Shown: positions 12,001 through 61,500 of the stretch, one piece after another | Layout: each line of letters starts with the position of its first letter | Position numbering within the stretch: position 1 is the first letter of the stretch | Assembly (NCBI GenBank): GCA_029261065.1 | Contig: JAJDCB010000028.1 | Location: forward strand, 447 to 64,446 | Direction: 5' to 3' | Source: Candidatus Omnitrophota bacterium | Lineage (GTDB): Bacteria > Omnitrophota > Gorgyraeia > Zapsychrales > Zapsychraceae | Length of the DNA: 64,000 nucleotides | The notes under the pieces: generated by a model | Database searches by the model: none | Told to the model about the DNA's origin: nothing | The model's input: only the letters and a program-made list of their open reading frames with translations | Translations under genes and position numbers: made by a program

Positions 12001-15000
12001 CTTCATCTATAGTATTACCGTCATCACAAGATTCATTCCCATTAACAAGATCATCCCCACAAAATTCTGTAGGAGTACACGAATTATAAGAGCAATCCGA
12101 TTGGCACGATTGAATACCTTGATAGCCGTTAACGCTACAACTAAGAGAAGAGTTGCCTTCACATTCTTCGCCTAAACCAGGTTGAACAATGTTGTCACCG
12201 CAAGCTTCAAGAACACAAGTTGCGGAGCAACCGTCTTCATCCAAGTTATTACCGTCATCGCAAGCTTCACCCGTTTCAAGAACGTTGTTGCCGCAAGACC
12301 CTTGAGTGATACCAGTACAGAGGGCATTACAATTGTTAGGTGTGCCGTTGTTGACACCGTCATCACAAATTTCGCCACTTTCAAGAACATTGTTGCCACA
12401 AGAGCTTAGAGTGATTCCGCTACAGAGAGCATTACAATTGTTAGGCGTACCATTGTTAGCGCCATCATCACAAGATTCATTTCCATTAACAATATCGTCC
12501 CCACAAGATTCTGTAGGGGTACAAGAATTATAAGAGCAATCCAATTGGCAAGATTGAATACCTTGATAACCATTGAGGACACAATTAAGAGAAGAGTTGC
12601 CTTCGCATTCTTCACCTAAACCAGATTGAACAATGTTGTCCCCACAAGATTCAAGAACACAAGTCGCGGAGCAACCGTCTTCATTTGAGTTATTACCGTC
12701 ATCACAAGCTTCACCTGTTTCAAGAACGTTGTTGCCACAAGTCCCTTGAGTTGTACCAGTACAAAGGGCATTACAATTGTTAGGCGTGCCGTTGTTAGCG
12801 CCATCATCACAAGATTCATTACCATTAACAATATCGTCCCCACACGATTCGGTAGGAATACAAGAATTATAAGAGCAATCCAATTGGCAAGATTGAATAC
12901 CTTGATAACCATTGAGGACACAATTAAGAGAAGAGTTGCCTTCGCATTCTTCACCTAACCCAGATTGAACGATGTTGTCACCACAAGATTCAAGAACACA
13001 AGTCGAGGAGCAGCCATCTTCATCCGCATTATTACCGTCATCGCAAGCTTCACCCGTTTCAAGAACGTTGTTGCCGCAAGAGCCTTGAGTTGTACCAGAA
13101 CAGAGAGCATTACAATTGTTAGGCGTGCCGTTGTTAGCGCCATCATCACAAGATTCATTACCATTGACAATATCGTCCCCACAAGATTCGGTAGGGGTGC
13201 AAGAGTTGTAAGAGCAATCGGATTGGCAAGATTGGATGCCTTGATAACCATTAAGGACGCAATTAAGAGAAGAGTTGCCTTCACATTCTTCACCTAAACC
13301 AGATTGAACAATGTTGTCACCACAGGATTCGATAGTACAAATGGAAGAGCAGCCGTCTTGATCGACATTGTTACCATCGTCGCAAGCTTCAGCGCCTTCA
13401 AGGGTATTGTTGCCGCAAGATGCTAAAGTGATTCCGCTACATTCGGCGTTACAATGATTAGGGGTTCCGTTGTTCGTGCCGTCATCACATGCTTCAACTC
13501 CGTTTACAATGTTGTCCCCACAAAATTCTGTAGGGGCGCAAGAATTATAGGAACAATCATTTTTACAGGATTGTGTTCCGTTATAATTATCGATCACACA
13601 ATTAAGAGAAGAGTTGCCATCACATGCCTCGCCTAACCCAGGTTGAACAATGTTATCGCCACAAGATTCAAGAACACAGACAGAAGAGCAACCGTCTTCA
13701 TCCACGTTATTACCATCATCACAAGTTTCATTATCTTCAAGAATACTGTTGCCACAAGAGGCAGGAGTGGTTCCGCTACATTCGGCGTTACAAGAATTTG
13801 GCGTATTGTTGTTAGCGCCATCATCACACGATTCGTTTCCGTTTAAAATACCATCACCACAAGATTCGCTAGCGATACAGTTATTAAAGGTGCAGTTATT
13901 AAGACAGGATTGTGTTCCTACATATCCATTAATACTACAGCTTATGCTTTCGTTTCCTTCGCACTGTTCACCAAGTTCGTTTTGAACGATGTCATCGCCA
14001 CAAGATTCGATGTTACAAGTTGAAGAGCAGCCATCTTCATCCGTGTTGTTACCGTCATCACAAGCTTCATTGTTTTCTAGAATATTGTTACCACAAACAG
14101 CTTCAGTTATTGCAGTACAAGTATCATTACAATGATTAGCGCCTCCATTGTTAGCGCCATCATCACAGGTTTCGTTACCATTTAAAGTGCCATCGCCACA
14201 AAATTCGGTAGGTGAGCAAGTATCAAAAGAACAGGTATCTTGACATGATTGAATTCCGTTATAACCATTTATGATACAGCCAATCGTTGTGTTTCCTTCG
14301 CATTGTTCGGAAAGGCCATCTTGAACGATGCCGTCGCCGCAGAATTCATTTTGACATGTAGACGAGCAACCATCATTGGAGGAGAGGTTATGATCATCAC
14401 ATTCTTCACCAAGACCGGGTTGAATAACGTTATCCCCGCAAATTTCAAGTTTACATTCAGGAGAGCAGCCATCATTAGCATCATTGTTGCCATCATCACA
14501 AAGTTCGCCTAGTTCGAGTTGTCGGATGCCATCCCCACAAAGTTCAGCGGCACAATCTGGTGTACAACCATCATTGAAATCATTGTTACCATCATCACAC
14601 ACTTCACCTAATCCAGCTTGAATGATATTATCGCCACAAAATTCAGCGACACATAGATCGTTACATCCATCACCGGAATTGGAATTTCCGTCATCGCAAT
14701 TTTCACCTAAATTTGGCTGAATTGTTCCATCGCCACAAAATTCATTGACACAAATATTGTTACAGCCATCGCCATCAATGTTATTTCCGTCATCACAGGA
14801 TTCACCCGCTTCAATGATAGTGTTGCCGCAGACAGGTAATGTTGTGCCATTACATTGAGCGTTACAATGATTGGAGGTTCCGTTATTGTTACCATCATCA
14901 CACGTTTCATCGCCGTTTCGAATATCATCTCCACAGAACTCAGCAGTCGTACACGAATCAAATGAGCAGTTGCTTTGGCAAGTTTGAAGACCTTGGTAGC

Positions 15001-17977: not shown

Positions 17978-18290
17978 GTTAGCCACATCCATGACTTACT
18001 TGTTTTTTATATTTACTTAGTAAAAGTATAGAATCTAAGATATTAATAACAATGTGTAGGAGGGGATCTTAAGAAAGCGGTTTCTTGTAGAGAGTTATTA
18101 AGATATTTTGTTAACATAAGTTGTTTATTATCAATACTTTATGTATATTCGCATCGAGGAGGTGATAATGATAATTTAGAAATTAATAAAATATTGTGGG
18201 TTTTTAAGTAAGATTAATAGGAATCAACATTAATCATATTAGTAATAAGAAAAGAGATCGCTTAAGACTGATGCTATTGATTATAAATTG

Positions 18291-20827: not shown

Positions 20828-22144
20828 ATGGATGGTGAAATGAATTTAGATGCGAATGCACGTTATAAATCTCAGGCTATATCATATACTCAGGCTGTTG
20901 CGGAGATATTTTATGCCGTTTTGGAAAAAAAGTATCCATTGGATAAGGAGCTTAAGTCCTACTTCCGTCAGCATGGGGAATGTGGTTCGCGCGATCGGTA
21001 TGCAATTAGTGAAAGTTGTTTTAGTTTGTTTCGTTGGTTTGGGTGGCTTGATTCCCGTTTGCCCAAGGGGATGCCGGCAAAGCCGTTTGAATCACAAAAA
21101 TTTTGTCATGCGCTTGCGGCTGCTTTGTGGTTAGAAGGTCATAATGATCTTCCATTTTTTTCTTCTCTTATAGATCAGACCCGTATCGATGTATCTTTTA
21201 TGTCGTCGACTCCAAACGACATTCAAGGAAAGATAAAGGGGTTGGGCCATTTTTTTAAATTAAGAAAATTAGATGCTGCACAATTGATTCCAGAATGGTT
21301 CGTTCCAATTCTTCCAGACGGAACAGATGTAAATGCTTTAATTGACTCTTTGCAAAGACGTCCTCCTGTATGGATTCGTATTCAAAATAAATCGCATATA
21401 CGTGTGAAAAAAGAATTGGAAAAAAGAGAGGTGGTTTTTTTTGAACATCCTCATTGTTTAAATGCGATTCGAATTCAAGATACGAAATTTAGAGCGAATG
21501 AATTTCTGGGTTATCAATCAGGTGATTTTGAGATTCAAGATTTGGCTAGCCAATGTATTGGCTTGGTGTGCCAAGCAAAAACGGATCACGTTTGGTGGGA
21601 TGTTTGTGCTGGTGCGGGGGGAAAAAGTTTGATGTTAGCTGATGAGATGCAAGGTAAGGGGAGGTGTGTTGCAACGGATATTCGTGAAGATCTCCTAGAT
21701 AAACTTAAACCACGTGCTCGGCGTGGCAAATTTAAAAATATTAGTGTAAGCCCGATTGGGGATGTCTGTGCGAGTACGAATATGTTTGACGGAGTCCTAG
21801 TAGATGCCCCGTGTTCGTGTACGGGTATCTGGCGTCGAAATCCTGATCTTAAATGGACAACGAAGGTCGATGCTTGCATGAAAGCTACTCAAGCGCAATT
21901 AGATATTTGTGAGATGGCGTCGAAAAAGGTTAAAAAAGGTGGTGTGTTGGTATATGCCACGTGTAGTCTTAGTGTTGAGGAAAATGAAAATTGTGTGAGA
22001 GCTTTCTTAAAGAAGGAAAAAGATTTTCAATTAGAAGGCTTTGCCAATCCTCTGAATGGAAAACCTTGTGATGGACAGTGCCGAATTTCTTTTCAACCCT
22101 TTGATAATGATGGTATGTTTGTTGCGAGACTTAGAAAATCATGA
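20828..22144 (+). CDS. RsmB/RsmF (NOL1/NOP2/Sun)-family rRNA cytosine-C5 methyltransferase
   Basis: SAM-MTase motifs ..DVCAGAGGKSLMLADEM.., ..VLVDAPCSCTGIWRRNPDLKW.., ..LVYATCSLSVEENE... Its stop overlaps the next start (ATGA at 22141). Confidence 0.85.
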   Translation: MDGEMNLDANARYKSQAISYTQAVAEIFYAVLEKKYPLDKELKSYFRQHGECGSRDRYAISESCFSLFRWFGWLDSRLPKGMPAKPFESQKFCHALAAALWLEGHNDLPFFSSLIDQTRIDVSFMSSTPNDIQGKIKGLGHFFKLRKLDAAQLIPEWFVPILPDGTDVNALIDSLQRRPPVWIRIQNKSHIRVKKELEKREVVFFEHPHCLNAIRIQDTKFRANEFLGYQSGDFEIQDLASQCIGLVCQAKTDHVWWDVCAGAGGKSLMLADEMQGKGRCVATDIREDLLDKLKPRARRGKFKNISVSPIGDVCASTNMFDGVLVDAPCSCTGIWRRNPDLKWTTKVDACMKATQAQLDICEMASKKVKKGGVLVYATCSLSVEENENCVRAFLKKEKDFQLEGFANPLNGKPCDGQCRISFQPFDNDGMFVARLRKS

Positions 22145-23187
22145 GTCATTTAAGCACGCCTAAAGTTTCTATCCTTTTACCAAATTACAATACTCGCCCC
22201 TTTCTTCAATCAAGGATGGATTCTATTGTTAATCAAACTTATAAAAACTGGGAACTTATTATTGTTGATTGTCATTCGAATGATGGGGCATGGGAATTTT
22301 TTAAAAGTTTTGAAGGATCATCGTATGATATACAAATGAAGCAAATACCGAGGGAAGGCATTTATAAAACGATTAATGCGTGTTTGGCTTCAGCTTCGGG
22401 AGAATATATCTATATTGCAACAAGTGACGATACGATGCGAGAAGATTGTTTAGAGAAGATGGTTCTCGCCCTTGAAGATCATCAAGAGTGTGGACTTGCT
22501 CATTGCTGTTTGACGATTATTGACGAAGAGGGGCGCCCAAGTCGTATTGTTTGGGATAATTTTCTTCCCCAAAAGTTTCATAAAGAAACAATTTCAAAAA
22601 TGCATGTTCGTCAAGCGCCATGGGATGGTTTGTTGTATTTTGGGTTGGGTTCTATATATACCTCTTTAACACAACTTTTAATAAGACGGGATGTTTTTAA
22701 GAAAGTGGGTGAATTTAAGAGCGATTGGGGTTCGATCGGTGATGTGGAATGGTGTATGCGTGTAGCATTAAATTATAATACGCTTCATGTGCCTGAATAT
22801 TTAGCAACTTGGCGTAAGCACGACAAACAAGCCACACCAAAAAAGGTAGACACTTTAAAAAATTGCCAATTACGAGTCTCGATAGTTCAATCAGTTTTTG
22901 AAGATTGTAGAGATAATAATGTTGATTTATACAAAATGATCAAATCAGCTAATTTATTAGATTTTTACTTGTATGAATTATTCACAAAGCTTCTTGCTCA
23001 AAATTCATCAATTTTTAATAAGAGTTCTATTATCTTAAAATACGCCTTTTCTTATCCTCGGTTGCTTATAAGAAAAATAGTGGAAAAAATTAGATTTTTT
23101 ATGGGCGATAAAAACTACATGGGCCCGGATGATGTTTATAGAATAGAAGGGCTTGTGCAGAAACTTGGTTTCATAGCGAGTGATTAA
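22141..23187 (+). CDS. Glycosyltransferase family 2 (GT-A fold), paralog 1
   Basis: ..KVSILLPNYNTRPFLQSRMDSIVNQTYKNWELIIVDCHSNDGAWEFF.. is the GT2 N-terminal signature. About 70% identical to the 26231..27256 product. Confidence 0.8.
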   Translation: MSHLSTPKVSILLPNYNTRPFLQSRMDSIVNQTYKNWELIIVDCHSNDGAWEFFKSFEGSSYDIQMKQIPREGIYKTINACLASASGEYIYIATSDDTMREDCLEKMVLALEDHQECGLAHCCLTIIDEEGRPSRIVWDNFLPQKFHKETISKMHVRQAPWDGLLYFGLGSIYTSLTQLLIRRDVFKKVGEFKSDWGSIGDVEWCMRVALNYNTLHVPEYLATWRKHDKQATPKKVDTLKNCQLRVSIVQSVFEDCRDNNVDLYKMIKSANLLDFYLYELFTKLLAQNSSIFNKSSIILKYAFSYPRLLIRKIVEKIRFFMGDKNYMGPDDVYRIEGLVQKLGFIASD

Positions 23188-23353
23188 TTCTTCGGTAACC
23201 TCCTTGGACTCCCCTTAGCAATTGCGGGATATCATTAGTAAAACTTTTGCTTTTTTCCTTCCTAAATAAGTTAGTGTTTTGTCTTGTTTATATCAAAGAA
23301 GTGGTTAGTTTCTCAAGCCTTGTTTAATCATTGATAAATGTTATGCTTTTTAT

Positions 23354-23803
23354 ATGAAACGGTGTCTATTTTTCACATGTTTGTTTTTTATTATATCTGT
23401 AAGTGTTTGCAACGCAGATATATATAGATATAAGGATGACAAGGGGACTGATTGGTTTGTTGATAATATTGATGCTGTGCCCCAACAGTATAGAGGCCAA
23501 CTCAAAGGGGTGATTAAGTCTGCAGCCTATGTTCCTCCTCAAAAATCAACAAGACGAAAGAACGCTGTTGGTCCAAGAAAAGTCGAGATTTTTGTTACAG
23601 AATCATGTCCTTACTGCACACAGCTTGAGGAGCATCTTAAGGCTGCCAAAGTTAAGTATAAGAAGTTAGACATTATAAAGAGTAAAGAAGCTGGTAAGGA
23701 GTACAAAAAGATTAAAGGACGCGGCGTTCCTATTTTACGATATGGTAAGAAAATTATTCGCGGTTATAACAAAGCCGAAATTGATAAGGTGTTAAAGATT
23801 TAG
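23354..23803 (+). CDS. Secreted DUF4124-like / glutaredoxin-domain fusion protein
   Basis: Signal peptide MKRCLFFTCLFFIISVSVCNA. ..DIYRYKDDKGTDWFVDNIDAVP.. is a DUF4124-like motif. ..VTESCPYCTQLEEHLKAAKVKYKKLDI..GRGVPIL.. is a CPYC glutaredoxin/thioredoxin fold. Confidence 0.6.
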   Translation: MKRCLFFTCLFFIISVSVCNADIYRYKDDKGTDWFVDNIDAVPQQYRGQLKGVIKSAAYVPPQKSTRRKNAVGPRKVEIFVTESCPYCTQLEEHLKAAKVKYKKLDIIKSKEAGKEYKKIKGRGVPILRYGKKIIRGYNKAEIDKVLKI

Positions 23804-24127
23804 ATAAAGGAGCTGATTGGGTTACTACGTGTCCTAATAGGATTTATAGTGCGATAATTTGCTTCTTTTACATTTTTTGAACCTACCCTTTGTGAAATAA
23901 TTTCTAAACAAATAGTACAGATATTGCAAATGTTTAAGTAGAATAAAAAGGATCTATTAAAATAAGGGTTAAGATATGAAGCGTTTTAAAAAAATATTTA
24001 CAAAGAAACCGGTATCAAGTAGGTATGGATTTCTGGGGCTTTGCTCTAGGGATGCATTGCACGTAAGTGCATATCCATTTATTACAAAAAGGAAAATTGC
24101 TTAAATATTTAAAAAGGGAATGATGGT

Positions 24128-25060
24128 ATGAGTTTAGCTCCAATAGTATTTTTGGTTTACAATCGTCTTTCGCATACGCAAAAGACATTTGAAGCGATTT
24201 TAAAAAATGAGCTGGCCCAAGACACAGAAGTTTTTATCTTTTGTGATGGTGCCAAGAATGAGGTAGATCAGCCTCGTGTTTTAGAGGTTAGAAATTTTGT
24301 GCGGGGGATTAAAGGATTTAAAAGTATCACAATTATTGATAGCGAAAAGAATAAGGGCTTGGCTAATTCTGTTATAAACGGTGTTTCTCAAGTGGTGAAA
24401 AAATTTGGAAAAGTGATTGTACTGGAAGATGATTTAGAAACTTCACAATATTTTTTGAAATATATGAATGATGCTTTAAATAAATATGAAACTGAGGAGC
24501 GAGTGATGCAAATCAGTGGCTACAATTATCCTATTGAAACAAAGGGTCTCAATGAAACGTTTTTTTACAGGCATGGCAGTTCTTGGGGGTGGGCGACGTG
24601 GGCTCGGGCGTGGCAACATTTTGAGCCGAATATTGATGTTTTGATCTCTAAATTCGATAAAAAAAGAAAGTTTAGATTCTGTATGGATGGGAGTAATCCT
24701 GAGTTTTGGAAATTAATGATACAACAGCAGCAAGTTAAGGTTGATTCCTGGGCGATCCGTTGGTGTGCAAGTTTTTTTATTGAAAATGGTTTGGTGTTAA
24801 GACCGCGGCAATCACTTGTTAGAAATATAGGTATGGATGGAACGGGAGTGCATTGCGGGGCGAGTACGATTTATGATGTTGAGCTGGCAAAAGGAGAGGT
24901 AGTCGAGTTTGAAGAGGTGATTGAAGAGTCAAAACTTGCTCATCAACACAACAAAAATTATTTTATTAAAATTTCATCATCTGGCCTTGTTAATCGAATG
25001 ATTAATCGCACTAAAAGAATGTTAGGCATTGTTGATGAGTTAAAAATATTTTCTAAATAG
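24128..25060 (+). CDS. GT-A fold glycosyltransferase, GnT-I (GT13)-like with EDD motif
   Basis: ..PIVFLVYNRLSHTQKTFEAI.. then ..VIVLEDDLETSQYFLKYM.. resembles the EDDLE catalytic motif region of GnT-I-family transferases. 310 aa. Confidence 0.45.
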   Translation: MSLAPIVFLVYNRLSHTQKTFEAILKNELAQDTEVFIFCDGAKNEVDQPRVLEVRNFVRGIKGFKSITIIDSEKNKGLANSVINGVSQVVKKFGKVIVLEDDLETSQYFLKYMNDALNKYETEERVMQISGYNYPIETKGLNETFFYRHGSSWGWATWARAWQHFEPNIDVLISKFDKKRKFRFCMDGSNPEFWKLMIQQQQVKVDSWAIRWCASFFIENGLVLRPRQSLVRNIGMDGTGVHCGASTIYDVELAKGEVVEFEEVIEESKLAHQHNKNYFIKISSSGLVNRMINRTKRMLGIVDELKIFSK

Positions 25061-25073
25061 GAATAAATAGGGT

Positions 25074-26234
25074 ATGAAAGTCCTTTACGATTATCAAACA
25101 TTTCAATTTCAGACCTTTGGCGGCATCTCACGCTATTTTGTGGAGTTGATGCGGTTATTAGAGTCGAATCATAAGTTGGACATTAATCTTCCACGTATTT
25201 ATTCAAAGAATAGTTACATCAAACAGCTTCATTTGCCTAAAGGTAATGTGTTAAGGGCTGTTGAGTATAAAGATTTTTTTCCCAATTCTGAATTTAAAGG
25301 GAAATGGAGTTTATTTTGTTTGCTTGAAAAGTGGGGGGTGCTTACTGATGGGAAATCTTATAATCAAGTGAGTTCGGCTGAGCGGATCAAGCTGCAGGAT
25401 TTTGATATCTTTCATCCTACCTATTATGAAACTTATTTCTTAGAACATATCGGATCAAAGCCTTTTGTTTTAACGGTGCATGACATGATTCATGAAGCGT
25501 TATGTGAGAGTGTTCCTACCTTTAATGTTCCTTTGATTCAACAAAAGAAAGAACTCATTGAGAGATGTTCTAAGATTATTGCTGTTTCGGAGTCAACCAA
25601 ACAAGCAATTATTAAAATGTATAATACCGAGGCTGATAAAATTAGGGTGGTGCATCATGGTAATTCGATGAATCCCGCTGATGGGTTGACTGTGACAATG
25701 AAGTTGCCACAAAAATATGTGCTTTACGTTGGTAGGCGAGATTTCTATAAAAATTTTGACTGCTTGATCCGTTCCTTGGCGCCTTTGTTGAAAAAAGATA
25801 AAGACTTTTATCTTATATGTGCGGGAGGTGCGCCCTTAAAGGACAATGAAGTTAAACAATTAAAAACATTCGATGTTGAAAATAAGGTTTTGTATTATGA
25901 TATTGATGATAACCGTTTAGTTCAATTGTATAGTCATGCACAAGCTTTTATTTTTCCCTCACTTTATGAAGGTTTTGGAATTCCGATTCTTGAAGCTTTT
26001 GCTTGTGGTTGCCCTGTTCTTCTTAATGATATAGCTGTTTTTCATGAGGTGGCGGAGGATGCTGCTATTTATTTTAAGGCTGATAACGAGGAGAGTACGC
26101 GTGAGGCTGTGTTAAATATCATAAATGATGATCAACTAAAATGCCGTCTTAAGAAAGATGGGGGTCGTCGTTTGGCATGTTTTTCTTGGGAGAAAACGGC
26201 AGAATCAACTTATGAGGTTTATAAAGAGTTATGA
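25074..26234 (+). CDS. Glycosyltransferase family 4 (GT-B fold)
   Basis: C-terminal GT4 signature ..LYVGRRDFYKNFDCLIRSL..FPSLYEGFGIPILEAFACGCPVLLNDIAVFHEVAEDAAIYF... Its stop overlaps the next start (ATGA at 26231). Confidence 0.8.
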   Translation: MKVLYDYQTFQFQTFGGISRYFVELMRLLESNHKLDINLPRIYSKNSYIKQLHLPKGNVLRAVEYKDFFPNSEFKGKWSLFCLLEKWGVLTDGKSYNQVSSAERIKLQDFDIFHPTYYETYFLEHIGSKPFVLTVHDMIHEALCESVPTFNVPLIQQKKELIERCSKIIAVSESTKQAIIKMYNTEADKIRVVHHGNSMNPADGLTVTMKLPQKYVLYVGRRDFYKNFDCLIRSLAPLLKKDKDFYLICAGGAPLKDNEVKQLKTFDVENKVLYYDIDDNRLVQLYSHAQAFIFPSLYEGFGIPILEAFACGCPVLLNDIAVFHEVAEDAAIYFKADNEESTREAVLNIINDDQLKCRLKKDGGRRLACFSWEKTAESTYEVYKEL

Positions 26235-27256
26235 GTTTATCCCCTTCACCAAAGGTTTCAATTCTATTACCAAATCTAAACGCACGTCCATTTCTAGAAG
26301 ATAGAATGGATTCTATTGTTAATCAAACTTACAAAAATTGGGAACTTATTATTGTTGATGGGTATTCGGATGATGGCTCTTGGAAATTTTTTCAAGAATT
26401 TAAAACTAAAAATTATGTAACTCACATGCAACAAAGCCCACGTGAAGGAATTTATAAGGCAATTAATAAATGCTTATCCTTATCTTCAGGAGAATACATT
26501 TATATTGCTACCAGTGATGATACGATGAGTGTTGATTGTTTGGAGAAGATGGTTGCAGCTCTTAAAGATCATAAAGAATGTGGTTTAGCACATTGTTGCC
26601 TAACGATAATAGATGAGCAGGGAAAGCCAAGTCCGATTGTGTGGGATTATTTTCCTACTCAGCAGTTTTATGGTGAGAAATTTCATACGAGCTATGTTCG
26701 AGAAGCTCCTATAGATGGTCTATTATATTTTGGGTTGGGATCCGTGTATACGTCTTTAACGCAACTTCTTATTAGAAAAAGTGTTTTTGATAATGTTGGT
26801 GTGTTTAAAAATGATTGGGGAGCGATAGGTGATGTTGAATGGTGTATGCGAGTATCATTAACTTGTGATGCGATTCATGTTCCCGAATATTTGGCGACTT
26901 GGCGTAAGCATGAGAAACAGGCGACTCCGCAGAAAGCAGATACTTTAAAAAGCTGCCAAGATCGCATTGCCATGGCTCATTCCGTGCTTGAGTTTATCAA
27001 ACAAAATAATAAAGAGGTTTATCGATTGATTCAAGCGAAGAAGTTGTTTGATTTCTATGAGTATGAAGAGTTTACTAAGCTTCTTGCTGAGGTGTCCTCG
27101 CCATTTCAAAAATTTTTACTGACTGCTAAAAATTGTTTTTTAAATCCTCGTTTGGTATTAAGGAAAATAGTAGAGAAGATTAGATTTGTTTTTGGTGATC
27201 AGAATTATATGGGGTTAGATAATGTCAGTAGGATGAAAAAGTTGATTTATAAGTAA
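26231..27256 (+). CDS. Glycosyltransferase family 2, paralog 2
   Basis: ..KVSILLPNLNARPFLEDRMDSIVNQTYKNWELIIVDGYSDDGSWKFF... Collinear ~70% identity with the 22141..23187 product across the full length. Confidence 0.8.
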   Translation: MSLSPSPKVSILLPNLNARPFLEDRMDSIVNQTYKNWELIIVDGYSDDGSWKFFQEFKTKNYVTHMQQSPREGIYKAINKCLSLSSGEYIYIATSDDTMSVDCLEKMVAALKDHKECGLAHCCLTIIDEQGKPSPIVWDYFPTQQFYGEKFHTSYVREAPIDGLLYFGLGSVYTSLTQLLIRKSVFDNVGVFKNDWGAIGDVEWCMRVSLTCDAIHVPEYLATWRKHEKQATPQKADTLKSCQDRIAMAHSVLEFIKQNNKEVYRLIQAKKLFDFYEYEEFTKLLAEVSSPFQKFLLTAKNCFLNPRLVLRKIVEKIRFVFGDQNYMGLDNVSRMKKLIYK

Positions 27257-27737: not shown

Positions 27738-29081
27738 ATGCCAACGAATGAATACAATTTTGACGGTCTTATAGGCCCAACGCATAATTTTGCAGGTCTT
27801 GGTGTAGGGAATGTTGCCTCGCAGAGTAATAAACATGCGACATCTAATCCTCGAGAGGCAGCATTGCAAGGCTTAAGAAAGATGCGCCTTCTTTATGATA
27901 TGGGGATTAAACAAGCGATTATCCCGCCGCATGAACGACCCCTTATGGAAGCCCTTTGGGCGCATGATTATAGAGGTAGTGAGAAATCGATATTAGAGAA
28001 AGTCAGTCGTGATAACTATAATTTGTTGTTATCTATCTCAAGCGCCTCAGCCATGTGGAGTGCGAATGCTGCTACCATATCTCCTTCCATGGATTGTCAT
28101 AATCATCGCCTTAACTTTACACCTGCCAATCTTTTATCACAGTCTCACCGTGCTATGGAAACCAAACAAACCACCATTTTTTTACAAACAATTTTTTCGG
28201 AATTAGGCTGTTTTACCTTTCATCCAGCCCTTCCGGATGATGGTCGTCTTTTTGATGAAGGCGCTGCTAATCATATGAGGTTGGCTTCCAGTCATGCCGA
28301 TAAGGGGATTGAAATCTTTGTTTATGGACGGTCTATCAAGGAAGAGGCTCCTCAACCTTCTGTGTATCCCGCTCGTCAAAGTTTTGAAGCCAGTGACATT
28401 ATAGCGAAAACACATCTTCTTGATGCTGAGTTAACGATAACCGTTCAACAAAATCCTAAAGCCATTGATAAAGGCGTTTTTCACAATGATGTTATTGCCG
28501 TTAGCAATGAAAATGTTTTGTTTTATCATGAGTTGGCGTTTGTTGATACTAAAGCCTTTATAGAGGAGTTAAAGAAGAAGTATAAGTTGGTGTCTGATCA
28601 GCCGTTACATCTTATCGAAATAAAGAGTTCGGATTTATCGCTTGATGAGGTGGTGGCGTCTTATATTTTTAATAGTCAGATTGTGACTTACGCGAAAGGG
28701 GAAATGGCGATTGTAGCACCCGAACGTTGTCAGGAGAAAAAGATCAAAAATATATTACATGACATTTTGCAAGCTGATAATCCAATTAAAAAAATATATT
28801 ATGTGCCCTTGAATGAAAGTATGCGCAACGGAGGGGGACCTGCGTGTTTGCGTTTGCGTGCCGTTTTAACAGAGAATGAATCCGGTTTTTTGCATAAAGG
28901 TTTTCTATTAGATAAGAAAAAGTTCGGTCTTATTGAAAGCTGGATTAATAAACGTTACCGAGATCATCTGCATGTGGATGATTTAAAAGATTATGAGCTT
29001 TTTAAAGAATCTCGACAAGCCTTAGATGAATTAACACAGATTTTAAACATAGGGAGTGTGTATGCGTTTCAGAAAACTTAG
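27738..29081 (+). CDS. astB: N-succinylarginine dihydrolase (AstB family)
   Basis: N-terminus [28 protein letters not shown].., ..IIPPHERP.., ..[22 protein letters not shown].., ..[16 protein letters not shown].., ..[10 protein letters not shown]. Collinear with E. coli AstB along its whole length. Confidence 0.85.
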   Translation: [447 protein letters not shown]

Positions 29082-53398: not shown

Positions 53399-55852
53399 AT
53401 GATAAAAAACATATTGTCTAAAAATTATTTTCTCATACTTCTTATGTTGTTGGTCACGTTTTTGGCCTTTTATCCAACATTAAAGGCTGATTTTGTCCAT
53501 TGGGATGACGAGGGGCATTTGCTTGAAAATGTTGTTATTCGATCTCTCGATGCTGAGCATATACGAGAAATTTTTAGTCAAAGCGTGCAAAATGTTTATA
53601 TTCCTTTAACGACGCTCAGCTTTGCTTTGGAATATCATTTTTTTGGGTACAATCCATTTGTCTATCATCTAACAAATCTTTTATTGCATTTATTAATAGT
53701 GTTATTAATTTATGGATCCGCGCGTTTATTGGGATTGGGACTTCTAGCTGCTTTTTGTGCGGGAACTCTTTTTGGGATTCATCCCATGCATGTAGAGTCA
53801 GTAGCGTGGATCACGGAACGCAAAGATGTTTTGTATGCTTTTTTTTACATGTTAGCCATATTTAGTTATTTGCTTTTTATGAGAAAGAATGAACAGGCTT
53901 TTCGGTCAAACGCTAAACTCTCTGTAGGGTATCTCGTATTTGTTTTTTTATTTGGAGCTTTAAGTATGTTGGCTAAACCCATGGCCCTTAGTTTGCCGTT
54001 GATCCTTTTGTGGATCGATTGGTATAAGGATAGAAAAATTGATATTAAGGTTCTTTTAGAGAAATTACCATTAGGGATAATGATTGGAGCTGTAACGTGG
54101 ATTACTTACTCTCAACATGTGCGCGTTCCTGGAGATGAAACCGGCTCTGCGGGGCTTATCTGGATTTGGACTTTTATTTTTTATCTTAAACAGTTTTTTA
54201 TCCCATTGTTTAATGTTCCTATATATCGTCTTAGCTATCCCATTAGTATTGTTGAACCTGAATATCTTTTTTCTCTCATCGCATTTTTACTTATCGGTTT
54301 TAGTGTTTTTCGATTAAGAAAATATCGTCTTTACATTTTTGCTCTTGGATATTTTTTGTTCTCCATTTTCTTTTTATTACGGTTCGATGCTGCGAAAGAT
54401 ACAAATGTTGTTGCGGATCGATTTATGTATTTGCCGAGTTTGGGCTTTTGTTTGCTGTTTGGTTTTCTCATGGAAGTTTTTTTAAAGAAAGCAGCCATCG
54501 CGCAACAAAGGTTTCGTCTGTTTGTCGTCGGATTTTTGATTGTTAGTGTTTTTACTTTTTTAGGTGTGCGCACGTATAAACAATGTCAGATTTGGGACAA
54601 TACCATTGCTCTTTGGAAACATGAATTAAAATATTTTCCTAAAGAACATATTGCTTTAAACAATTTGGGTGTTGAATTGCAGGGGCAAGAGTCGTTTAAA
54701 GAGGCTGTAGATCAATATAGTCATGTTCTTCGGGTTAAGGCTGAAGGATTTGAAGTTAAGGTTAATGAGAATATTCTTCAAGATATGAATCAAATCAATG
54801 AAGTGATTGGTTTATATGAGCGTGCGGTTCGTTCTAAACCGGATTATGTGCGAGCCTTTTACAATCTTGGGAATCTTTACAAAGAGATTGGTTTATATGC
54901 TGAGGCGGTAAGATTATTTAATCAAGCGATTGCTACAGATCCCTACTATAAAGATTCTTTTATGAATTTGGGTAATTTATATAGAGATGTGGGAGAGGCG
55001 CAAAAAGCCATTGAATCTTATACAAAATATGTGCAAGGATTGCCAGATGATGAAGATGTTCGTGTTTATGTTGTGTTAGCTTATAATAAAGCCTTAGAAA
55101 TGACGCCCAAGATTGAGAAGGCTTACATCTTATATAAGCAAGCGCGTGAAGAGGCGTTAAATGAATTTACAAGGCTTATTAATACTAAGCCTGCTCGAGC
55201 CACTTCATTTTTCAATTTGGGGTTTTTGTACAGCGAGATTGGAGATTTAGAGCGGGCTATTTCTGCTTATCGAACAGTTCTGGATATCAATCCTCATCAT
55301 GGCCATGCGTTGTATTCTCTGGGGAATATATTCCAATTTCAAGGCCAATATAGTCAAGCCATGCAGATGTATCAAAAATCTTTGAAAGTCCTTAGTAGGC
55401 ATGTGGATACGTACACTGATATGGGTACAATATTAGAGAAGCAGGGAAAGGGCAAGGAGGCTCGAAATCGCTACGAACAAGCTCTTGATGTGGATGTGGA
55501 TAACCATAAGGCTTTATATCGCTTAGCATATTTAGATGCGCAGCAAGGCCTTACACACAAAGCTTTAGAGGCTTATTTACATCTTATTGAGTTAAATTAT
55601 CGTAACGCTAATGCTTACAATGATTTAGGTGTAATTTATGTTAAACTGGAAGATTCAACAAATGCTCAAAAAGCCTTTGAAAGGGCTGTTGAGTTGGATC
55701 AAAATAATGTTGACGCGTGGATTAATTTGTCTAACTTATCCTTCATCCAGAAAGATTACCAAAAAGCGATTGAGTATTTAGATGAGGCTGTATTTATTGG
55801 GTATGAGGCACCGGTGGCGTATTTGAAGGCGCTGGAAGCGTATCGGAATTGA
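53399..55852 (+). CDS. TMTC-like protein: N-terminal multi-pass membrane domain (DUF1736/GT39-like) fused to C-terminal TPR repeats; putative protein O-glycosyltransferase
   Basis: N-terminal ~420 aa with ~10 TM segments and the motif ..KADFVHWDDEGHLLEN.. . C-terminal ~400 aa of canonical TPRs (..AFYNLGNLYKEIGLYAEAVRLFNQAIATDP..). Confidence 0.6.
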   Translation: MIKNILSKNYFLILLMLLVTFLAFYPTLKADFVHWDDEGHLLENVVIRSLDAEHIREIFSQSVQNVYIPLTTLSFALEYHFFGYNPFVYHLTNLLLHLLIVLLIYGSARLLGLGLLAAFCAGTLFGIHPMHVESVAWITERKDVLYAFFYMLAIFSYLLFMRKNEQAFRSNAKLSVGYLVFVFLFGALSMLAKPMALSLPLILLWIDWYKDRKIDIKVLLEKLPLGIMIGAVTWITYSQHVRVPGDETGSAGLIWIWTFIFYLKQFFIPLFNVPIYRLSYPISIVEPEYLFSLIAFLLIGFSVFRLRKYRLYIFALGYFLFSIFFLLRFDAAKDTNVVADRFMYLPSLGFCLLFGFLMEVFLKKAAIAQQRFRLFVVGFLIVSVFTFLGVRTYKQCQIWDNTIALWKHELKYFPKEHIALNNLGVELQGQESFKEAVDQYSHVLRVKAEGFEVKVNENILQDMNQINEVIGLYERAVRSKPDYVRAFYNLGNLYKEIGLYAEAVRLFNQAIATDPYYKDSFMNLGNLYRDVGEAQKAIESYTKYVQGLPDDEDVRVYVVLAYNKALEMTPKIEKAYILYKQAREEALNEFTRLINTKPARATSFFNLGFLYSEIGDLERAISAYRTVLDINPHHGHALYSLGNIFQFQGQYSQAMQMYQKSLKVLSRHVDTYTDMGTILEKQGKGKEARNRYEQALDVDVDNHKALYRLAYLDAQQGLTHKALEAYLHLIELNYRNANAYNDLGVIYVKLEDSTNAQKAFERAVELDQNNVDAWINLSNLSFIQKDYQKAIEYLDEAVFIGYEAPVAYLKALEAYRN

Positions 55853-55868
55853 AGGTTTTCCAGGAATA

Positions 55869-56039
55869 ACCAAGATACAAGGTAGAAGAAATTCCAGCCT
55901 GCGGCTGGAACCTCGCCTTTGGCGGGGCAAAAAATAACCATTTTCCAATATTTCAATAACCAAATGTTTGGTGTTTTTAAGTATTGGTTATTGATTATTT
56001 TTTGTATCTTGTGCCTTGTATCTTGGTTATTCCTGCCAG
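55869..56039. repeat. Second type of MITE-like element: 23-bp terminal inverted repeats CCAGGAATAACCAAGATACAAGG flanking ~125 bp with internal hairpins, inserted between the TMTC-like gene and tRNA-Arg
   Basis: 55869-55891 ccaggaataaccaagatacaagg vs 56017-56039 ccttgtatcttggttattcctgg are exact reverse complements. Internal hairpins: ccagcctgcggctgg, and aataaccaaa..ttggttatt. Confidence 0.6.
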
Positions 56040-56055
56040 GTTTTTTTGTAAATTT

Positions 56056-56129
56056 GCGCCTGTAGCTCAGATGGATAGAGCGCGGCCCTCCTAAGGCCGG
56101 CGTCGGAGGTTCGACTCCCCCCAGGCGCA
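56056..56129 (+). tRNA. tRNA-Arg (anticodon CCU)
   Basis: GCGCCTG acceptor stem, D-arm TAGCTCAGATGGATAGAGC, anticodon stem-loop CGGCC-CTCCTAA-GGCCG (CCT), T-arm GGAGGTTCGACTCCCCC, 3' CAGGCGC + A. 74 nt; CCA not encoded. Confidence 0.9.
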
Positions 56130-56157
56130 TAATTTTGAATCCACCGTATAATAAGAG

Positions 56158-58020: not shown

Positions 58021-58051
58021 TTTCTAGTTAACAATTGTTTTACATATAAAA

Positions 58052-58088
58052 CGTCCTTACTGCTAATGCGGTAAGGACGTTTTTTTTA
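58052..58088 (+). terminator. Rho-independent terminator of the porin gene
   Basis: cgtccttac-tgctaatgcg-gtaaggacg (9-bp perfect stem, 10-nt loop) followed by a run of 9 T. Confidence 0.85.
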
Positions 58089-58153: not shown

Positions 58154-58485
58154 ACAATTTTTATGTTGAAGAACTAATTCAAAAATAGCGAGCATTTTAT
58201 TTAGAAGCCTTGACGTAAAAATCAAAATAAGAAAGTATAATTTTGATCAAAAAAACGTTTTATTTGTAAAAACCTTTTTCTTAACCGAGCTCTCGACGAG
58301 GAGTTATTGAAAATAGTTGTAAAAAAGTTAAAATACTGTTTCTTTTTAAATAATAATTTGTTAATATAAAAACAATCAAAAAGCTTTCCGATGTATTTAA
58401 GAGATATGACTTTACGGAAATATAGCTTTTTATTGAAAGACACACTTCTCGCAAGAAAATTTAGAATAGTTCATTTAGGAAAATT

Positions 58486-59061
58486 ATGACACGCGATGAT
58501 ATCTACGATCACTTAGCTCAAGTATATTTGGGTAAACGTAAAGAAGTCGACGAGCGAAAAACTCGTCAGTTTAATGCATGGTTGGTTATTAATATTGCTA
58601 TTACGTTTATTGTTTTTGCAAGTGCGACATATGGTCTAACGGCCTTTTTAACGAACCGTTCTGACTTTTTGGATAATCGTATTATTTATGCCTTGCATCA
58701 AGGTAAGATCCGTCTAGAGTACAATTTATTCGAACCCTACGCCCCAGTTAAGACATTTGCTTTAAATGTTCCTTCTATTGATGCCAGCAAATACAAAAGC
58801 ATTCAATTTTCTATTCGTGGTAAAGAAGAAGGGACTCCAGGTGTCGTCAAAATTGTGGTTAGAAATTTTAAAAATGAATCATCTTCTTATTACATTCAGG
58901 GAGTCGGCCTTAAATGGCAAGATTTCGATATCTCTTTAAGTGAATTTCAACAAATTACAGATTGGTCTAACATTATTGATGTATCCTTTGTTCTTGAGAC
59001 GTGGAATGTGGATAAGAAAAAAGGAATTATTTTAATTGAAGATGTTAGCTTTTCAAGTTAA
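58486..59061 (+). CDS. Single-pass membrane protein with extracytoplasmic beta-sandwich (CBM-like) domain, hypothetical
   Basis: Cytoplasmic N-terminus, TM helix WLVINIAITFIVFASATYGLTAFL, then a ~130-aa domain with an alternating beta pattern (..KSIQFSIRGKEEGTPGVVKIVVRNF.., ..IDVSFVLE.., ..ILIEDVSF). Confidence 0.4.
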   Translation: MTRDDIYDHLAQVYLGKRKEVDERKTRQFNAWLVINIAITFIVFASATYGLTAFLTNRSDFLDNRIIYALHQGKIRLEYNLFEPYAPVKTFALNVPSIDASKYKSIQFSIRGKEEGTPGVVKIVVRNFKNESSSYYIQGVGLKWQDFDISLSEFQQITDWSNIIDVSFVLETWNVDKKKGIILIEDVSFSS

Positions 59062-59134: not shown

Positions 59135-60493
59135 ATGAAAATTATTTCAATCGCAAATCAAAAAGGTGGTTGCGGTAAGACGACCACAGCGATTAATTTA
59201 GCAGCGGCGTTAGGCCTAAACGGCAAGAGGGTCATGTTGCTGGATTTGGATCCACAAGCGCACGCTTCTTTAGGTTTGGACATTGAGAGCCAAGACAGTT
59301 TGTATAATGTCATCTCCAATCTCACACCTCGTAAATTAAAGATTGAAAATATTATCAAAAGTGTTGAAGGGATTTTTGATATTGTCCCATCGAACATTCT
59401 TGTCGGAACTTTAGAGCAGGAATTGGCCGATGAGATTGGACGAGAGTTAAAGTTAACAGAAATTTTAAAAGCTGTTGAAGGCCAATATGATTATGTTTTG
59501 ATTGATTGTCCACCTAGTTTAGGAATTTTAACGGTCAATGCATTGCGTGCTAGTAATGAATTGATTATTCCAGTTGAAACAAGCCGTTTTTCCATGCAAG
59601 GGGTAGATCATTTGACAGACATCGTTAATTTAGTTAAAGATCGATTAAATCATACAGTTAAAAGTAATATATTAGTTACGATGTTTGATTCTCGTTTACG
59701 TCATTCTTTTGCAATGTTATCAACATTTAAGGAACGTTTTACAGGGTTGTTGTTTGATACGATTATCCATATTAATGTTAAGCTTAAAGAGTCCGCGGTT
59801 ATGGGAAAGCCTGTGTCAAGTTATGACAAATATTGTCGAGGATCAAAGGATTATTATTCTTTAGCAAAAGAGATGATTTCGATTGAGGCTCAGGAAGAAA
59901 GAAGACTTGAAGAGGCTCAAGAAACCGCTCAAGAAGAAGATGAGCCAAAAGATAGTCGTATTGAAAAGGTTGTCCGCGCTATTCGTGAAGCTCAAGAAGA
60001 GCAAAAGGTCGCTAAAGAACAAAGACAAGAAGTTAAGGCACAAGAAAAAGAAGCTAAAGCAGTAGCTAAGGAAGACGCCGCCAAAGCTGAAGAAAAAAGT
60101 GCCGAGACTAAGAAACCTCGTGTTAAAGTAACCCCGGAGGCAAAAGAAGCTCCAGATTTTAAACCCCTGTCCGATAAAATGAAGGCAGTGGTTAAAAAAG
60201 AAGTTCAAGATTTAATGGAGACAAAATTTTGGATTGATGCCGCTGGTGCAAAATCCGTTTATGTTACAGGAAGTTTTAATGATTGGTCGTTAGATGAAAA
60301 TTGTCGTCTCAAAAATAACAACGGCCGATGGGAAGCATCCATCCCTCTTAAGGGTGGAGTTTACAAATATCAATTTATTGTTGATGGTGTTTGGAGAGAA
60401 GATCCCAATAATCCGAGAAAAGAAAGAAACTCATTTGGCGATATTAACTCTCTTGTTGAGGTAAGCACCGATGGGCAAACGCAAGCCGTCTGA
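59135..60493 (+). CDS. ParA/MinD-family P-loop ATPase fused via a Glu/Lys-rich linker to a C-terminal AMPK-beta-type glycogen-binding domain (CBM48)
   Basis: Deviant Walker A MKIISIANQKGGCGKTTTAINLAAALG.., ..LLDLDPQA.., ..YVLIDCPPSLG.. (ParA). Residues ~255-360 are an E/K/A-rich low-complexity stretch. The C-terminus ..TKFWIDAAGAKSVYVTGSFNDWSLDENCRLKNNNGRWEASIPLKGGVYKYQFIVDGVWREDPNNP.. matches the AMPK beta GBD / CBM48 consensus. Confidence 0.75.
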   Translation: MKIISIANQKGGCGKTTTAINLAAALGLNGKRVMLLDLDPQAHASLGLDIESQDSLYNVISNLTPRKLKIENIIKSVEGIFDIVPSNILVGTLEQELADEIGRELKLTEILKAVEGQYDYVLIDCPPSLGILTVNALRASNELIIPVETSRFSMQGVDHLTDIVNLVKDRLNHTVKSNILVTMFDSRLRHSFAMLSTFKERFTGLLFDTIIHINVKLKESAVMGKPVSSYDKYCRGSKDYYSLAKEMISIEAQEERRLEEAQETAQEEDEPKDSRIEKVVRAIREAQEEQKVAKEQRQEVKAQEKEAKAVAKEDAAKAEEKSAETKKPRVKVTPEAKEAPDFKPLSDKMKAVVKKEVQDLMETKFWIDAAGAKSVYVTGSFNDWSLDENCRLKNNNGRWEASIPLKGGVYKYQFIVDGVWREDPNNPRKERNSFGDINSLVEVSTDGQTQAV

Positions 60494-61393: not shown

Positions 61394-61412
61394 ATTCTGA
61401 CAATTTTTGACA

Positions 61413-61447
61413 TTTCTTGGTCTTTTTAGTAATAATATGTTATATTT
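61413..61447 (+). promoter_or_regulatory. Candidate sigma-70 promoter (TTGACA-17 nt-TAATAAT) for the pilin-leader giant gene
   Basis: tttTTGACAtttcttggtctttttagTAATAATatg, ~50 nt upstream of the ATG at 61501. Confidence 0.3.
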
Positions 61448-61500
61448 ATATTAAAGTTTAGTTTATGTTCCAAAAATTTTAATTTTGATACCCCCTACAA

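Follow-up and report, generated by a model that had tools for sequence, protein, structure and literature searches.

ATPases of the ParA/MinD superfamily are a general bacterial means of placing chromosomes, plasmids, carboxysomes, chemoreceptor arrays and division sites. Storage granules are known to be tied to the nucleoid in the case of polyhydroxybutyrate and other polyhydroxyalkanoates (PHB/PHA), where PhaM and PhaF secure inheritance; these proteins are not ATPases and act through phasin and synthase contacts. The placement of glycogen granules is usually assumed to be passive, through nucleoid exclusion; we know of no ParA/MinD ATPase described for glycogen, and to our knowledge the distribution and inheritance of bacterial glycogen granules are essentially unstudied. 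Here we analyze a protein encoded in a 64,000-nucleotide stretch of contig JAJDCB010000028.1 (the window) from a Candidatus Omnitrophota bacterium, a member of a phylum of mostly uncultured nanobacteria. The protein, hereafter ParA-CBM48, joins a ParA-family ATPase to a glycogen-binding domain of the AMPK-beta/CBM48 type (CBM, carbohydrate-binding module) and recurs in two phyla. We consider the case evenly balanced that it forms a nucleoid-based ParA system with glycogen as its cargo. A first-pass annotation, made from the sequence alone, had known of no such system, and likewise no description of a ParA-CBM48 protein or of a glycogen-positioning ParA was found in the searchable literature. 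The proteins have been deposited solely as "AAA family ATPase" or "chromosome partitioning protein".

The make-up of ParA-CBM48 from three parts, namely a Soj-like ParA ATPase, a helical charged spacer and an AMPK-beta-type CBM48, is confirmed by profile searches, matches to solved structures and an AlphaFold2 model made from 32 family sequences. The open reading frame (ORF) is preceded by a Shine-Dalgarno sequence (AAAGGAGGG) a few bases 5' of its ATG. Pfam assigns to it AAA_31 (residues 1-176, E = 6e-54, 183 bits against a cut-off of 27), CbiA (E = 9e-17, 61.7 bits against 25.4), AMPK1_CBM (PF16561, residues 370-446, E = 3e-16, 59.8 bits against 26.8) and CBM_48 (PF02922), the last with 24.2 bits just over its cut-off of 22.4. 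In the model, residues 1-250 take up a ParA fold, residues 240-311 form two long Glu/Lys-rich helices, residues 311-342 are disordered, and a short helix then leads to a beta-sandwich (residues 361-443) with a predicted local distance difference test score (pLDDT) above 90. An assembly or frameshift artefact can be ruled out, because the fusion lies in one ORF in 82-83 of the 86 loci examined and recurs across at least 120 protein clusters. These results bear out what the first-pass annotation had proposed for the protein: a ParA/Soj ATPase with the deviant Walker A motif KGGCGKTT, a Glu/Lys/Ala-rich linker of about 100 residues and an AMPK-beta/CBM48 C-terminus. Its suggested searches for other ParA-CBM48 fusions and its suggested AlphaFold model gave the family and the folds described here, and the C-terminus, for which it had allowed that profile searches might instead return a non-glucan Ig-like fold, was placed by both profile and PDB searches in the alpha-glucan-binding CBM48.

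The ATPase domain carries the Walker A string NQKGGCGKTT with the signature lysine K10 (K10GGCGK15T), together with D37 and D39, the Walker B D124, and R187. The last residue sits in TMFDSR, which is aligned to TMFDSR of the 8ray ParA, and we take it to be the equivalent of B. subtilis Soj R189, the arginine that binds non-specific DNA. In a PDB sequence search using the N-terminal 272 residues as a query, the best match is the ParA family protein 8ray (E = 4e-50, about 38% identity), followed by Soj of H. pylori (2e-40) and of T. thermophilus (8e-38), whereas McdA (6non/6noo, E of about 5e-12 only), ParF, MinD and P1 ParA are much weaker. A Foldseek search with the model also pairs the ATPase domain with 8ray, 2bek, 1wcv and 6iub (TMt 0.75-0.80). 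Among the NCBIfam models, ParA_partition (NF041546, an equivalog) gives 106.8 bits against a cut-off of 180, partition_RepA 105.7 against 348, and cellulose_yhjQ (TIGR03371) 64.5 against 157.85; the Pfam model CBP_BcsQ also matches the domain over residues 1-245. ParA-CBM48 belongs to the ParA/MinD superfamily and is nearest to type Ib Soj, from which it departs in two respects: no ParB lies next to it, and its score stays short of the NCBIfam equivalog cut-off.

The spacer is rich in Glu (22%), Lys (17%) and Ala (15%) over residues 250-360 and differs in length between family members, the whole proteins ranging from 369 to 474 residues. It appears to be more than plain disorder, since about 70 residues of Glu/Lys-rich helix are predicted in it. 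The C-terminus contains the CBM48 string VYVTGSFNDW...YKYQFIVDGVWREDP, which the first-pass annotation had quoted, and in a PDB sequence search with the C-terminal 117 residues the glycogen-binding domains of AMPK beta1 and beta2 come out best (1z0n, E = 4e-11), followed by the CBM48 of pullulanase, neopullulanase, LSF1 and GlgB; there is also a weak match to a type IX secretion plug protein.

To describe the family we scanned one genome per GTDB species and took the best 80 of more than 560 confirmed stretches; the counts on gene context given below were drawn from those 80 and from related loci (85-86 examined). At least 120 protein clusters have the ParA-CBM48 architecture. The best 120 all carry ParA domains and PF16561 and show 61-68% identity to ParA-CBM48 over the full length, and those with names are labelled "Candidatus Omnitrophica/Omnitrophota AAA family ATPase" or, at JGI, "chromosome partitioning protein". 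About 50 of the best 80 loci belong to Omnitrophota (41-77% identity), including metagenome-assembled genomes (MAGs) that are titled "uncultured Planctomycetales" at NCBI yet show Omnitrophota synteny. About 30 belong to Phycisphaerae-type Planctomycetota (31-37% identity), with Sedimentisphaerales, Tepidisphaerales, Phycisphaerales and Anaerohalosphaeraceae among the carriers, and a few come from MAGs with other labels. The family is large, already sequenced and uncharacterised, and the fusion is no invention unique to the genome of the window.

In an alignment of 86 sequences from the two phyla (31-77% identical), K10, K15, T16, D37, D39, D124 and R187 are invariant (86/86). In the CBM, W384 and W420 are kept in 82 sequences out of the 84 in which those columns are occupied (82/86 overall). 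Aligned to AMPK, W384 corresponds to W100, W420 to W133, N438 to N150 and F434 to L146; the column of N150 holds Asn or Asp and that of L146 holds Phe or Tyr across the family, T148 is replaced by Asp or Glu, and the column of K126 holds Arg or Lys for the most part but Gln in the subclade of the window, where a Lys stands two residues before it. From the work on 1Z0M/1Z0N we take W100 and W133 to be the residues that stack on sugar, and we take N150 to be a further residue in contact with it. Across two phyla, then, purifying selection acts on the residues for hydrolysis of ATP, on those for DNA binding and on the sugar-binding face alike. A search with the CBM only, which covered 1.84 billion representatives, returned mostly secreted proteins with tandem CBMs as its top matches, so it gives no clean census of ParA fusions. 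Many of these tandem-CBM relatives (proteins P0346-P0495) are about 480 residues long with four copies, and one, of Candidatus Epulopiscium viviparus, has 18 copies in 1,812 residues; their annotations read hypothetical or, wrongly, "branching enzyme".

In the window, ParA-CBM48 is the second gene of a unit of four: the membrane protein gene tm191, a gap of 73 nucleotides, ParA-CBM48, an overlap of 23 nucleotides, duf108, a gap of 26 nucleotides, and lys189. The overlap of the duf108 start with the ParA-CBM48 stop suggests translational coupling. Practically every Omnitrophota locus keeps this order, including those in which ParA identity drops to 41-47%, and the neighbours were detected beside ParA-CBM48 in 50 of 50 Omnitrophota loci for tm191, in 34 loci for duf108 and in 45 loci for lys189. 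Profile HMMs of these three proteins found no match in the Planctomycetota loci, where clustering of the neighbours shows little synteny kept beyond a downstream partner.

A link to alpha-glucan metabolism comes from the genes next to this unit. In 26 Omnitrophota loci a GH57 gene on the same strand ends 14-293 nucleotides 5' of tm191, so that the unit there reads GH57 / tm191 / ParA-CBM48 / duf108 / lys189. The GH57-first loci (L016, L019, L020, L022, L025, L027, L029-L037, L040-L044, L046, L047, L051) make up about half of the Omnitrophota loci. The protein has about 520 residues (Glyco_hydro_57, E = 1e-60 to 1e-67), is cytoplasmic, has no signal peptide and opens directly with the catalytic motif FIFHMHQPYY; having no BE_C domain and matching no NCBIfam equivalog, it forms a distinct subfamily. 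A second kind of GH57 is found near two deeper-branching copies. In L075 (Omnitrophota, 40% identity) and L063, a degenerate ParA/MinD-like protein lies directly 3' of ParA-CBM48, and a GH57 branching enzyme with BE_C (342 bits to the Thermococcales branching-enzyme model) lies within 5-10 kb, with a DUF4912 protein just before it. The first-pass annotation had tied its reading to alpha-glucan metabolism in the genome, and such enzymes do stand beside or near these orthologues.

ParB/Spo0J carries at its N-terminus a ParA-activating peptide, RGLGRGLxALL. With Spo0J as the phmmer query (E <= 10), neither the six frames of the window nor 85 related loci, each at most 21 kb long, gave a ParB-like ORF. 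The first-pass annotation had reported no ParB-like partner nearby, which is true of the window; the outer lineages have a partner with a ParB-like peptide. In about 14 of 36 non-core loci (L054, L055, L057, L059, L063, L064, L071, L075, L082 and others), the gene immediately 3' of ParA-CBM48, starting -16 to about +300 nucleotides from its stop, opens with such a peptide. Its pattern is [KR]G[IL]xx[IL][SA]H[LF]FLS, seen in Phycisphaerae and deep-branching Omnitrophota (for example, KRLGRGLADVSHVFLS, KKLGKGLEDISYLFLS, RGIGSIAHLFLSQ, LSEISHLFLSS and RGIESIAHLFLSQ), and it resembles the ParB N-terminal peptide in position, length and pattern. In several loci the partner continues as a degenerate ParA/MinD-like domain; this downstream protein is a pseudo-ATPase partner, not ParB. 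The DUF4912 protein of L075, directly 5' of the GH57 branching enzyme, combines a Lys-rich stretch, a ParB-like peptide, DUF4912 and Glucodextran_B. One would expect such an arrangement if the ATPase were activated by a protein associated with glycogen, and it occurs at this single locus; no described function of DUF4912 was found in the searchable literature. The peptide motif is absent from the clade of the window, as searched in the window. The N-terminus of tm191 (DIYDHLAQVYLGKRK) was compared with the outer-lineage peptide (ISHLFLS), and homology is not claimed, the peptides being too short and too different. In the clade of the window the only candidate activators are tm191, by way of its invariant N-terminal stretch on the predicted cytoplasmic side, and the Lys-rich lys189.

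The three neighbours are largely as the first-pass annotation had described them. Its upstream membrane protein with a CBM-like beta-sandwich is tm191, for which 470 homologues were found; all those with a source name are Omnitrophica/Omnitrophota hypothetical proteins, and none of the 470 has a Pfam match. Residues 3-17 are near-invariant (R3 and I6-K17 invariant among close homologues). In an AlphaFold2 model (pLDDT 86.5), a helix at the N-terminus leads into a single transmembrane segment, which is followed by a C-terminal jelly roll that Foldseek matches to the folds of CBM11 (1v0a, E = 1.6e-7), CBM30, CBM4 and CBM28. By the positive-inside rule, the N-terminus should be cytoplasmic and the CBM-like domain periplasmic. 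The ATPase may have in tm191 its membrane anchor or a partner in the membrane. The DUF4870-like membrane protein that had been named downstream holds for the orthologues of duf108, since PF09685 (MamF_MmsF/DUF4870) is annotated in L001, L004 and L005, whose copies score 92 bits (L001) and 131 bits (L004 and L005) against that of the window; the copy in the window itself has no Pfam match at E <= 0.1. The histone H1-like Lys-rich protein is lys189. Its first 100 or so residues are 42% Lys with a net charge of +44, and its C-terminal 85 or so form a beta-barrel like EF-Tu domain 2 or Peptidase_U32_C (Pfam GTP_EFTU_D2 at 9e-4, under the cut-off; homologues carry PF03144 or PF16325). It is a candidate adaptor that binds polyanions such as DNA.

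A nucleoid-based ParA system with glycogen as its cargo would bring these observations together as follows. Judged by its sequence, the ATPase domain has all residues for ATP binding, dimerisation and non-specific binding of nucleoid DNA, and the spacer of about 100 residues is predicted to carry a CBM48 that retains the Asn and both tryptophans for sugar stacking. The CBM48 would bind cytoplasmic alpha-1,4/1,6-glucan, that is, glycogen particles. If it binds glycogen, nucleoid-bound ATP dimers would therefore tether glycogen and spread it over the chromosome; granules would stay dispersed and both daughters would inherit them, as with plasmids, carboxysomes, chemoreceptor arrays and other ParA cargo. 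A partner would trigger ATP turnover, and hydrolysis would release the glycogen. In Phycisphaerae and deep-branching Omnitrophota the activator may be the downstream protein with the ParB-like peptide, and in the clade of the window it may be the N-terminal helix of the presumably co-transcribed tm191 or lys189, the latter perhaps also providing a link to DNA as PhaM/PhaF do for PHB granules. More tentatively, and at somewhat less than an even chance, we propose a dedicated ATP-driven glycogen-granule partition system common to Omnitrophota and Phycisphaerae, in which the receptor is fused to the ParA and ParB-like peptides on glycogen-associated proteins such as the DUF4912 protein beside the GH57 branching enzyme (in Omnitrophota, a membrane-anchored protein) serve as activators.

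Several points weigh against glycogen as the cargo. We infer glucan binding, DNA binding and ATPase activity alike. The clade of the window lacks the GH57 gene adjacent to tm191, and tblastn with GH57 proteins found no remnant of it in the window; neither did this search nor Pfam on 30 further ORFs find any glycogen gene in the 64 kb, and clustering of neighbours found none near the Phycisphaerae copies. At the position of AMPK K126 the protein of the window has Q413, with K411 two residues before on the same strand. Outside the family, the CBM has its nearest relatives in secreted proteins that carry 3-18 copies in tandem and whose ligands are unassigned, so that the ligand specificity of the CBM is not settled by homology alone. 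Moreover, constitutive binding of a ParA to its cargo is not in itself enough to create a diffusion-ratchet gradient. A model built solely on nucleoid and granule also leaves unexplained why two of the four conserved genes code for membrane proteins and why the CBM-like domain of tm191 is predicted to lie in the periplasm.

ParA-CBM48 might instead be the chromosomal Soj/ParA of these phyla, with ParB/parS elsewhere in the genome and the CBM48 as an accessory module that docks the ParA on polar glycogen (a sink or anchor) or that ties segregation or replication control to the carbon store in an AMPK-like way. The nearest relatives of the ATPase are indeed chromosomal Soj/ParA proteins and not cargo-specific ones such as McdA, the arginine for non-specific DNA is invariant, JGI labels the proteins as chromosome partitioning, and the partner peptide of the outer lineages is like the N-terminal motif of ParB. 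However, soj and spo0J normally form an operon, and no ParB was found within 10 kb in 85 loci or in the window. The ParA_partition score falls well under the equivalog cut-off, identity to the 8ray ParA is low, the conserved neighbours are membrane proteins and GH57 and not gidB or parB, and the peptide-bearing partners are degenerate ParA-like or DUF4912 proteins without ParB domains. We regard a chromosomal role as unlikely, while giving it some weight.

The two membrane proteins would find a place if the ATPase organises an envelope-associated or enzyme complex in the manner of BcsQ, and not storage granules. The membrane protein tm191, with its invariant cytoplasmic helix and its CBM-like domain predicted outside, and the DUF4870 protein would then recruit the ATPase, and the CBM48 would hold nascent or imported alpha-glucan or maltodextrin for GH57 or for export. 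An outer-membrane Alginate_exp porin is a conserved neighbour upstream of the unit, CBP_BcsQ matches the whole ATPase domain, and the AlphaFold2 model aligns with BcsRQ structures in Foldseek. We consider this quite unlikely, because BcsQ scores fall far under those of Soj-type proteins and cellulose_yhjQ stays below its cut-off, the unit has no synthase or transporter gene, a strong terminator-like hairpin parts the porin from the unit, Phycisphaerae loci keep ParA-CBM48 without the membrane partners, and the DNA-binding arginine is invariant. That the beta-sandwich is a protein-protein interaction or oligomerisation module that binds no sugar, the cargo being something other than glucan, is improbable: the CBM of AMPK beta also contacts the kinase domain, CBM48-like domains occur in non-glucan proteins (the weak match to the type IX secretion plug protein is of this kind), the nearest outside relatives have unassigned ligands and the protein of the window has Gln at the K126 position, but the surface positions that in AMPK beta stack on sugar or hydrogen-bond to it (W100, W133, N150, and K126 as Arg/Lys) are the most conserved of the domain in two phyla, and a neighbouring GH57 gene in 26 loci is difficult to account for if glucan is not involved.

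The coordinates of the unit and of other features are collected in Table 1. The terminator-like hairpin marks the upstream edge of the four-gene unit, and no terminator-like site was found within it. The promoter-like sites ahead of tm191 are only suggestive, their count being not above the shuffled expectation. The window is otherwise an ordinary Omnitrophota chromosomal stretch, with genes for pyruvate phosphate dikinase, a sigma-70 factor, a phosphoribosyltransferase, a tetratricopeptide repeat (TPR) protein, tRNA-Arg, the porin, a glycosyltransferase (GT) cluster and a tRNA synthetase. Few ORFs are listed at the start of the window because one giant minus-strand frame covers that stretch; giant genes have been reported for Omnitrophota (bioRxiv 10.1101/2023.11.21.568195), and this frame is presumably among them. 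A small minus-strand ORF across the tRNA-Arg(CCT) gene was rejected as a shadow. The full-length succinylarginine dihydrolase (AstB) encoded after the glycosyltransferase cluster is unexpected for a small-genome Omnitrophota bacterium. Beyond lys189, a frame that runs off the window end opens with a Flp/pilin-like hydrophobic N-terminus (MSKINKKGQNAVEYLLMIASIVLLLIIV) and continues with Cys-rich CGDG...DCDD...DGC repeats.

Table 1. Features of the four-gene unit, its surroundings in the window and the DUF4912/GH57 region of two related loci (aa, amino acids)
Feature	Coordinates	Strand	Basis or remark
ParA-CBM48 ORF	59135..60493	+	452 aa, ATG start
ParA/Soj-type ATPase domain, aa 1-250	59135..59884	+	Pfam, PDB matches, alignment, Foldseek
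Glu/Lys/Ala-rich spacer, aa 250-360	59882..60214	+	Composition and AlphaFold2
CBM48/AMPK-beta-type glycogen-binding beta-sandwich, aa 361-446	60215..60472	+	Pfam, PDB matches, alignment, AlphaFold2
tm191, 191-aa bitopic membrane protein	58486..59061	+	AlphaFold2, Foldseek, conservation
duf108, small polytopic membrane protein, 108 aa	60471..60797	+	DUF4870/MamF_MmsF-like by orthology
lys189, 189 aa	60824..61393	+	Lys-rich N-terminus and beta-barrel C-terminus
Terminator-like hairpin, 16-bp stem and T run	58048..58083	+	Just 3' of porin gene (stop 58020)
Promoter-like sigma-70 sites	58307-58334 and 58433-58460	+	Ahead of tm191; weak consensus matches
DUF4912 protein / GH57 branching enzyme region	L075:13725-15608, L075:15806-17386; L063:87-2162		
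Giant open frame, at least 5,998 codons	about 2..17995	-	Runs off window start
Glycosyltransferase cluster (GT2, GT2-like, GT4, GT2)	22141..27256	+	
Succinylarginine dihydrolase (AstB), full length	27738..29081	+	E = 4e-177
tRNA-Arg(CCT)	56055..56130	+	Between TPR gene and porin
124-aa ORF, rejected	55756..56130	-	Shadow across tRNA-Arg(CCT)
Strong promoter-like site	61407-61436		After lys189, ahead of the frame at 61489
Open frame, at least 837 codons	61489..64000	+	Runs off window end

If ParA-CBM48 does position glycogen, a polysaccharide store would for the first time have an ATP-driven partition system. The protein would also count among the rare ParA ATPases that recognise their cargo without a separate adaptor, which would bear on the diffusion-ratchet mechanism. 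A glucan-binding module fused to the motor offers a testable handle, with two tryptophans, defined candidate activator peptides and hundreds of natural variants. A conserved and hitherto unannotated module of four genes is in addition contributed to the biology of Omnitrophota.

Compared with Soj/ParA of type Ib (1WCV/2BEK, 6IUB, 8RAY), the ATPase of ParA-CBM48 has the same fold, size, Walker motifs and arginine for non-specific DNA; it differs in a C-terminal extension of about 200 residues, in never adjoining parB in the loci searched and in having other conserved neighbours. Its downstream partners in the outer lineages are also unlike ParB carriers in lacking ParB or helix-turn-helix domains. 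BcsQ is likewise a ParA/MinD-fold protein of a polysaccharide system, but it has no CBM, and Pfam found no bcs genes among the ORFs of the window. The nearest solved relative of the C-terminal domain is the CBM48 of AMPK beta (1Z0M/1Z0N), with which it shares a predicted beta-sandwich, a cytoplasmic location and the equivalents of W100, W133 and N150; here the CBM48 is joined to a ParA ATPase and not to a kinase scaffold. The Lys-rich DNA-binding tails of PhaM/PhaF are similar to the histone H1-like tail of lys189; no sequence relationship to PhaM/PhaF was detected. The closest parallel in proposed logic lies with McdA/McdB and the orphan ParA-like systems (PpfA, ParC, PomZ, MipZ), in which a nucleoid ATPase works with a small stimulating partner. 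Classic McdA presumably lacks the signature lysine, which ParA-CBM48 has, and no carboxysome or McdB-like gene lies near ParA-CBM48 by Pfam on the ORFs of the window. Systems of the McdAB type recognise their cargo via a separate adaptor, whereas ParA-CBM48 carries its putative cargo-binding domain itself.

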